This document shows, in pieces, positions 12,596-12,740 of a stretch of DNA of 64,000 nucleotides. Origin of the DNA: a virus (lineage: Duplodnaviria > Caudoviricetes); the IMG/VR virus record IMGVR_UViG_2811995040_000001, positions 13,275 through 77,274 of that record. One strand, given 5' to 3'. The notes under the pieces are model-generated. The model was not told where the DNA came from, did no database searches, and saw only the letters and a list, made by a program, of their open reading frames with translations. Position numbers and translations under genes: made by a program. Numbering within the stretch: the first letter of the stretch is position 1; the number at the start of each line of letters is the position of its first letter.

Positions 12596-12740
12596 TTCCA
12601 TCGTAGTCGATTTGGCAGGTACTGTGTAGCCTGACTCCTCCTAGGGTTTAAGCCCGTATGTAAGCATATTGCGCACAGTCACTCGCCTTATCTACAAGCC
12701 CGTATTGTTGATTGAATTAACAAGTTCGTACATAAGGTAG
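12596..12740 (+). ncRNA. Candidate IS110 bridge/seek RNA
   Basis: 5' hairpin, then two stems with large internal loops (ACTGTGT/GCACAGT and CCTTAT/ATAAGG); each has AAGCCCGTAT; folded by eye. Confidence 0.55.

Follow-up and report, generated by a model that had tools for sequence, protein, structure and literature searches.

A covarying bridge RNA beside an IS110-family recombinase as the probable integration module of a 10.8-kb filamentous phage

A stretch of viral DNA of 64,000 nucleotides (hereafter 'the window'), itself a section of a 77-kb provirus record, harbors a filamentous phage of 10.8 kb, at whose left end the gene for an IS110-family recombinase is preceded by a structured non-coding region. 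It is very probable that positions 12618-12747 of this region are transcribed, probably from about position 12602, as a bridge RNA that acts together with the adjoining recombinase, and that the two constitute the integration module of the phage. The kind of system is known; in the present case its cargo is an entire phage.

The boundaries of the mobile unit are visible in related DNA that lacks it. In three related prophage contigs (L114-L116) the sequence ...gacctcct runs straight into tacgt..., such that ...catactgacctcct is contiguous with tacgttattcgcc... and the window's left flank is fused to its right flank; the element therefore corresponds to positions 12572-23398. The empty site contains CT(TA) in one copy, and the insert is bordered by it on either side (12570-73 and 23397-23400). 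The features that define the unit and its principal genes are as follows:

12572-23398, plus strand: integrated filamentous (inovirus-type) prophage of about 10.8 kb, the mobile unit, which would serve as the donor once circularized (from the empty sites, the limits of a second copy and the gene content)
12566-12571, plus strand: attL junction, consisting of the left target CCTC (12566-69) and the core CT (12570-71) (from the empty-site contigs)
23390-23403, plus strand: attR junction, consisting of the left donor ATAGTTG, the core CT (23397-98) and the right target TACGT
12748-13728, plus strand: IS110-family bridge recombinase of 326 amino acids (from Pfam, NCBIfam and an alignment with IS621)
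13773-22951, plus strand: inovirus genes, encoding a Rep_trans initiator, a coat protein, two pIII-like proteins (about 570 amino acids), a minor coat protein, a pI/Zot-like ATPase, a pIV secretin and a DUF2726 protein

A second insertion was found in contigs from three sequencing runs of another organism (one DNA and two RNA libraries), which match the window only at 12569-23402, carry other DNA on both sides and place the element at a site reading ...CCAC-CT-TACGG.... Parts of the phage are uncovered in those contigs, and neither a circular-junction contig nor an empty-site contig was seen among them. The closest relative (L069, labelled Salmonella enterica subsp. diarizonae) encodes a recombinase that is 61% identical to that of the window; its empty site in three other Salmonella genomes reads ...cctacctccTTAgcagac..., and the L069 insert sits between the two copies. 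That insert is a different, unrelated inovirus, with KfrA_N, a Phage_GPA replication gene, Zot, a secretin and DUF2726, and the DNA that it shares with the window is limited to the recombinase module (12556-13683, 68%) and the last 15 bases of the right end, where both read TTAACATAGTTGCTT. The identity of 17 of 19 bases between the window and L069 at the left had pointed to a long conserved left-flank target, a candidate that was rejected because the stretch is phage DNA.

A simple IS110 element would be a unit of 1.2-1.5 kb that contains only a recombinase gene and non-coding ends; the unit found here is 10.8 kb long and contains inovirus genes. Simple insertion sequence copies of this family do exist (for example, the 1.18-kb copies in one Enterobacteriaceae genome), and many inoviruses are reported to use XerCD, so that one might suppose that a simple copy of about 1.2-1.5 kb lies by chance at the edge of an inovirus that was integrated otherwise, by host XerCD or another integrase. 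Such a coincidence is, however, very improbable. The right-end motif is absent behind the recombinase gene. Its single exact occurrence in the window, as the 9-mer ATAGTTGCT, lies 9.7 kb downstream at the distal phage end and abuts DNA that is contiguous with the left flank in empty sites; the mobile unit is therefore the whole phage rather than a small adjoining insertion sequence. Furthermore, the same layout, with an IS110 module at the end of an inovirus, is found in L069, in the second copy and in all three of the small IMG/VR proviruses tested, and no other integrase was noticed among the phage open reading frames that were scanned.

The core common to target and donor, present at both junctions and in the empty sites, is the dinucleotide CT, the core that is usual in the IS110 group according to the accessible text of the IS621 reports (Durrant et al. 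2024, PMC11208160; Hiraizumi et al. 2024, PMC11208158). This assignment follows from an invariant AG after five variable bases in both RNA loops, together with a pattern shared by all of the element ends found, which read ...GTTG-CT-flank and flank-CT-T(G/A)TAT.... Cores of TTA or TT had been considered and were given up on account of that invariant AG.

The phage carries an apparently complete set of inovirus genes: initiator, coat protein, pIII-like protein, pI/Zot-like ATPase and pIV secretin are encoded on one strand, within the span of about 5-15 kb by which an inovirus was recognized. Two adjacent genes (15930-17645 and 17647-19347), each of about 570 codons, encode proteins whose C-terminal parts both match phrog_3942 and which look like tandem pIII-like adsorption proteins.

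The DNA on either side of the phage belongs to a lambdoid prophage, in minus-strand orientation, with a tail-fibre N-terminal gene and TipJ on the right, and open reading frames of unknown function plus two type III effector-like genes on the left. The latter (7562-9910 and 10245-10817) are found in that prophage immediately to the left of the insertion; one encodes a SopA/NleL-type HECT E3 ligase (NCBIfam 1039.9 bits, against a curated cut-off of 500) and the other a NleG-family protein. The insertion target is intergenic, with a probable terminator on one side and, on the other, the ribosome-binding site of a gene of the tail-fibre region. Immediately right of it a strong inverted repeat (catcctccacgtcc...ggacgtggaggatg) occupies 23417-23448, separating the tail-fibre stop codon from the point of insertion, and is probably the terminator of the tail-fibre gene; the phage is thus placed between this repeat and the ribosome-binding site of the next gene. 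Megablast searches of complete E. coli genomes and of phage records found no match to the module or the left flank, and a search with the right flank gave only 65-bp matches, to Gifsy-1 and Gifsy-2.

A further related provirus contig (L117) joins window positions 11189-12576 directly to 43423 onward, with 99% identity on both sides, and therefore lacks 30.8 kb comprising the inovirus and the lambdoid genes from terminase to tail fibre. The junction falls exactly at the att site (window 12569-12576 and 43421-43434), and window positions 43426-34 read CCAC-CT-TATGT, a target-like sequence that also fits the right donor guide described below. This gap could reflect a recombinase-mediated deletion between two sites, a microhomology deletion or ordinary mosaicism.

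The recombinase belongs to the IS110 family by several criteria, with Pfam matches to DEDD_Tnp_IS110 (2e-20) and Transposase_20 (2e-16), an NCBIfam match to 'IS110 family RNA-guided transposase' (2.6e-58), and full-length alignment of residues 15-325 with the transposases of IS621 (8wt6, E 3.5e-29) and ISCro4 (1.8e-29). Residues D18, E62, D104, D107 and S246 fall in identical aligned columns, and we take them to match the IS621 catalytic residues, which the structure paper names in its accessible text as D11, E60, D102, D105 and S241 (PMC11208158); the correspondence was drawn by motif and not by number, because the chain is numbered differently in the alignment. Relatives of the recombinase were gathered from species-representative genomes, Enterobacteriaceae genomes and viral contigs; 7 of 401 Enterobacteriaceae genomes contained a match at E <= 1e-60. 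The viral contigs yielded no match when they were searched with the single recombinase protein, and did yield matches to an alignment query.

The non-coding end directly upstream of this DEDD and serine recombinase is the location expected of a bridge RNA, and the RNA core ends 1 nt before the ATG at 12748. Its structural elements, as judged across the family, are:

12618-12747, plus strand: bridge RNA core (covariance model R1, 94.5 bits, E 3.2e-26; the sole match in the window)
12600-12611, plus strand: candidate 5' hairpin AUCG-uagu-CGAU (56% of cells paired, in a poorly aligned region)
12619-12681, plus strand: target-binding loop with its closing stem, 12619-12632 paired to 12668-12681 (RNAalifold and pair counts)
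12644-12655, plus strand: apical hairpin of the target loop, GGGU/GCCC (95.5% of cells paired; three of four pairs compensatory)
12699-12742, plus strand: donor-binding loop, closed by CCC (12699-701) and GGG (12740-42) (helix 3, 93.2% of cells paired)
12714-12727, plus strand: inner hairpin of the donor loop, GAA(U)/(G)UUC (alignment A5, columns 130-132 against 187-189)

The upstream regions of 22 relatives were aligned (alignment A2), and the consensus obtained with RNAalifold contains three helices, with 88.6% of cells paired and compensatory changes at 17 of the 20 pairs. None of 500 shuffles was as good on any measure, and sliding the pairing partners lowered pairing to 30-49%, a control that is not fully independent because the structure was predicted from the same alignment. 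The helix that closes the first loop has 12 pairs, 11 of them with compensatory changes (84.8% of cells paired); within it lies the stem ACTGTGT/GCACAGT that a preliminary description of this DNA had proposed as stem 1, which is paired in 87% of cells and compensatory at seven of seven pairs among the 22 relatives. The evidence for stem 1 is drawn from A2 alone, since R1 contains no stem 1 pairs and MAFFT mis-registered the stem in alignment A4. The helix that closes the second loop pairs the CCC of 'AAGCCCG' with the GGG just before the start codon; one of its pairs is CG in 13 sequences and UA in eight, and it was recovered in the model-based alignment as well. The inner hairpin of the donor loop also covaries, its middle pair being GC in 19 sequences, AU in 13, UA in eight and CG in three. 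The RNA family is accordingly built of two loops, each with an apical hairpin, and this architecture is backed by covariation.

The covariance model R1 was constructed from 17 of the 22 sequences, leaving out the most divergent (L005a, L020, L015, L016 and L018), and found 43 matches in all, nearly all of them just upstream of recombinase genes and many in loci outside the model set. By itself the single sequence of this region folds unremarkably (z = -0.95, with 38 of 200 shuffles folding equally well), and an Rfam search of positions 11000-15000 at E values up to 10 returned no relevant match. The preliminary description had named the region as the bridge RNA of an IS110-family recombinase and had looked to conserved structure in relatives, and to loop bases that co-vary with insertion sites, as its tests; the full-length homology to IS621 and the conserved, covarying structure uphold that identification.

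The alignment of guides with the att sites leads to the following map, in which the handshake positions are proposed by analogy with IS621:

12637-12642, plus strand: left target guide (LTG), CCUC+CU, of the same sense as CCTC + CT (six contiguous matches to 12566-71)
12658-12664, plus strand: right target guide (RTG), AUGUA+AG, pairing with CT+TACGT at 23397-23403 (7/7, one G.U)
12665-12666, plus strand: putative handshake dinucleotide CA of the target loop, pairing with TG at 23395-96, the last two left-donor bases
12704-12710, plus strand: left donor guide (LDG), AUUGUUG, of the same sense as the phage right end ATAGTTG at 23390-96 (6/7 identical)
12730-12736, plus strand: right donor guide (RDG), ACAUA+AG, pairing with CT+TATGT at 12570-76, the phage left end (7/7, all Watson-Crick)
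12737-12738, plus strand: putative handshake position of the donor loop, where a conserved G could pair with the C that ends the left target

The 5' side of the first loop thus matches the left target and core, its 3' side pairs with the core and right target, and the guides of the second loop fit the right end and the left end of the element itself, with the core in common. On this complementarity, the earlier assignment of loop 1 to the target and loop 2 to the phage ends stands. In the family alignment CU or CC closes the LTG columns, immediately ahead of the GGG hairpin, and both right guides are followed by an invariant AG. There is one internal mismatch in the LDG, and one of its two core positions matches (AU against CT); in relatives it reads ACAGUUG against ACAGTTG, so that a C-to-U change in the guide accompanies a C-to-T change in the DNA. 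Similarly, the L069 RDG reads AUGUA+AG against CT+TATAT, replacing a G:C pair with A:U. As for the proposed handshake bases, CA can pair with the donor TG and partly with the target TC; the AAGG of the donor loop is nearly invariant, every left target found ends in C, and the conserved G would fit that last C and not the G of the donor.

The strings on which the preliminary description relied are all present in the window (ATCG-tagt-CGAT at 12600-12611, ACTGTGT at 12621-27, GCACAGT at 12673-79, CCTTAT at 12686-91, ATAAGG at 12732-37, TACAAGC at 12693-99, ATGTAAGCA at 12658-66, AAGCCCGTAT at 12650 and 12696, AGTT at 12723, TCCT at 12636 and 12639, GCTTGTG at 12583-89 and TGCTTACGT at 23395-23403). 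From them it had drawn a map with the core GCTT, the donor guides UACAAGC and AGUU, and a second stem CCUUAU/AUAAGG. GCTT does occur at 12583-86 and 23396-99, and UACAAGC can pair with GCTTGTG, but this arrangement is now hardly tenable. The empty sites give CT as the core and place 12572-12586 inside the element as phage DNA, such that the left end lies 13 nt further left than the GCTTGTG that had been taken for it; L069 reads GCATGTG there, yet its RNA keeps UACAAGC (12693-99). The family model has AUUGUUG (12704-10) and ACAUAAG (12730-36) as donor guides instead. The halves of the proposed second stem are paired in only 59% and 36% of cells, pairing between them would bury the RDG, and GCCC (12698-701) pairs with GGG (12740-42) across the family. 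The repeated AAGCCCGUAT, whose AAGC had been read as complementary to the core, is a structural strand in both places according to the family helices and the model-based alignment: its copy at 12650 forms the 3' strand of the apical hairpin, and that at 12696 the 5' strand of the helix closing loop 2. Of the bases offered as left-of-core guides, the UCCU copy at 12639-42 does lie within the true LTG, CCUCCU, whereas AGUU (12723) is not a donor guide. The proposed pairing of AUGUAAGCA with the right junction is borne out and resolves into the RTG AUGUAAG on CT+TACGT followed by the handshake CA on the last TG of the phage right end; it is this succession of guide and handshake that explains why all nine bases fit the right junction, which is the top strand of the recombinant.

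The strongest evidence for the guide map comes from the second copy, which differs from the window at only two positions within the RNA region (12658 A>C and 12683 T>C). The pairing partner of the former is base five of the right target, which is T in the window (TACGT) and G at the second site (TACGG), so that the pair is kept; judged from sequence, this is a compensatory change of guide and target between near-identical elements. A wider comparison of ten insertion events with seven distinct RTGs gave a mean of 4.8/5 between each RTG and its cognate right flank, against 2.17/5 for 82 non-cognate pairs, and the true assignment was the only one of 5040 permutations to attain the observed score. 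The RDG scored 4-5/5 and the LDG 5-7/7 in all ten insertions. The corresponding family test of the LTG is weak (24-28/49, with 92 to 464 of the 5040 permutations equally good): that guide depends on four non-core bases, and the second site is mismatched to it (CCAC).

The rule was also applied prospectively to 20 distinct RNAs outside its derivation, for each of which the downstream DNA was searched for a CT preceded by that RNA's LDG 7-mer with at most one mismatch, and the five bases thereafter were scored against the RTG. Fifteen of the 20 scored at least 4/5 and ten scored 5/5; those scoring 3 or less were L007, L101, L006, L005a and L018, of which L006 reflects, by our reading, an alignment slip. 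Five further RNAs, outside the 20, had no candidate site within the available sequence. In the window itself six LDG-like sequences followed by CT occur downstream, and only the true end, at 23390, is then followed by a fully complementary right target.

The covariation of guides and flanks also bears on the possibility that the region serves the recombinase mRNA merely as promoter and 5' untranslated leader, with the protein alone recognizing the att sites. The 3' strand of the donor-loop helix, GGUAGGG (12738-44), does overlap the probable ribosome-binding site located 4-10 nt upstream of the recombinase ATG, and there is no terminator between the RNA and the open reading frame, as would suit a leader. 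However, flank bases covary with loop bases in the Watson-Crick sense, and the protein is a full-length homologue of that of IS621, which needs its RNA; we therefore give a leader without a guiding function very little credence. The roles of leader and guide are in any case mutually compatible, and because of the overlap at GGUAGGG folding of the bridge RNA could affect translation of the recombinase.

Transcription of the bridge RNA would require a promoter, for which the candidate is:

12587-12595, plus strand: -10-like element TGaTTTAAT (TGATTTAAT) of a putative promoter, with TTGCTT lying 17 nt upstream across the circular junction

A sigma-70 scan of 12450-12800 in the integrated state identified no promoter-like site and called no terminator, so that the -10-like element noted in the preliminary description fails the sigma-70 criteria of that scan. 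On the circle, the best junction-spanning pair of hexamers is TTGCTT-17-TTTAAT, with TG preceding the -10, and this geometry is the best in four of six elements scored (a set without L073). The -35 on the circle matches 3/6, and the circle scores about as attL does (8.5 against 8.0). Contigs from RNA libraries span 12569-13417; they may represent read-through or DNA, since they are joined to 2 kb of host flank. In the accessible text of the IS621 papers, circularization rebuilds the promoter and integrated copies express the RNA weakly (PMC11208160/PMC11208158), a pattern that the weak promoter of the integrated copy fits by analogy.

Taken together, these features suggest a scheme in which the donor would be the circular double-stranded replicative form of the phage, where the right end ATAGTTG, the core CT and the left end TATGT would be joined as CATAGTTG-CT-TATGT. 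Promoter elements would be reunited on that circle, and the recombinase would bind the resulting RNA and catalyze the reaction, presumably still at the present day. The second loop would read the donor through the LDG (12704-10) and RDG (12730-36), and the first loop the chromosomal target CCTC-CT-TACGT through the LTG (12637-42) and RTG (12658-64). Recombination at the CT core would then insert the whole phage, and the two bases after each right guide would pair with the other partner after strand exchange, as do the handshake guides of IS621. A bolder extension, to which we attach a low probability, is that enterobacterial inoviruses acquired the bridge recombinase for use as a re-programmable integrase, the phage being moved to new sites by single-base changes in its target loop (as with A or C at 12658), and that the same enzyme might produce a single-stranded circular copy of the prophage for direct use in rolling-circle replication and packaging, with phage being made while the prophage stays in place. 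The suggestion of such copy-out derives from the reported excision of IS110 elements, in which mainly single-stranded circles are described as being released.

Other members of the family carry other cargo or occupy comparable places. An element of 8.3 kb in another Enterobacteriaceae genome (L087 250-8520, identical with the L073 element) is delimited by ends of this kind and carries a bridge RNA to match (RTG 5/5), and its cargo is non-phage: a HlyD-type protein, a C39-peptidase ABC exporter and a ClpP-like protease, which together look like a bacteriocin or microcin export set. In L013 an LDG-matching end with a 5/5 right target lies 3.9 kb past the RNA, and not about 1 kb, which suggests another cargo-bearing element. 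In another viral contig, a recombinase relative with 50% identity and its own bridge RNA (L099 3847-4942) likewise lies just downstream of a TipJ-like gene and a 348-amino-acid gene, and the region behind lambdoid tail genes may be a recurrent landing place. In five small inoviruses of IMG/VR (L088, L089, L090, L093 and L102) the provirus call starts at the recombinase match or at most 21 nt before it; provirus callers have therefore cut off the bridge RNA and the left junction in these records.

These observations describe a natural bridge RNA whose payload is a complete virus and in which both att sites are explained base by base, as well as a natural one-base retargeting between two near-identical phages. 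They indicate that natural bridge systems move at least 10 kb, and suggest that the att-site choice of inoviruses that carry IS110 genes (those of Neisseria Nf, Thermus and the gut) can be read from a short RNA. We found no paper that ties a bridge RNA to filamentous-phage integration, in a survey judged mostly by title; supplementary tables might list the element.

Insofar as IS621 is described in the text accessible to us, the present system resembles it in the position of the RNA (in the left non-coding end upstream of a DEDD and serine recombinase), in its two internal loops and CT core, in the two handshake bases after each right guide and, by our reading, in a -35 placed across the circle junction. 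It departs from IS621 in its cargo, which is a whole 10.8-kb filamentous phage rather than an insertion sequence of 1.2-1.5 kb, in the distance of the protein match (phmmer E 3.5e-29), in the length of the RNA core (about 130 nt, against 177 nt), and in its guides, where the LTG seems short (4 + 2) and the core positions of the LDG are unmatched.

Site-specific integration is likewise a property of the prophages of XacF1 and similar filamentous inoviruses. CTXphi is a further filamentous phage that integrates by XerCD at dif. In contrast to the phage described here, the XerCD/dif inoviruses such as XacF1 are reported, in the descriptions available, to use host tyrosine recombinases and a dif-like attP, without a phage recombinase or an RNA guide.

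The filamentous phages Nf/MDA of Neisseria and phiOH16/Zuza of Thermus have an IS110-family transposase at one prophage end and are thought to integrate by it (PMC7058167, PMC11437467); the target repeat of Nf contains a conserved CT (PMC7058167). A guide RNA is unmentioned in the accessible text of those two papers, and the hosts and phages are unrelated to those of the window. Distant homologues of the window's recombinase (25-35% identity) were found in 22 deposited phage records, ten of them named Inovirus, with the Thermus phages Zuza8, phiOH16 and Zuza27 (27-28% identity) and two small 'Dulem virus' records of unknown kind also among them; no Neisseria record was among the 22. Finally, a preprint on expanded IS110 elements (bioRxiv 10.64898/2026.08.14.744561) describes units far larger than an insertion sequence that are bounded by IS110 ends and a bridge RNA, some with phage or plasmid content; the words filamentous, inovir and prophage are absent from the portion of its text that was available. 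The cargo here is a coherent and apparently complete inovirus, and not accreted DNA.
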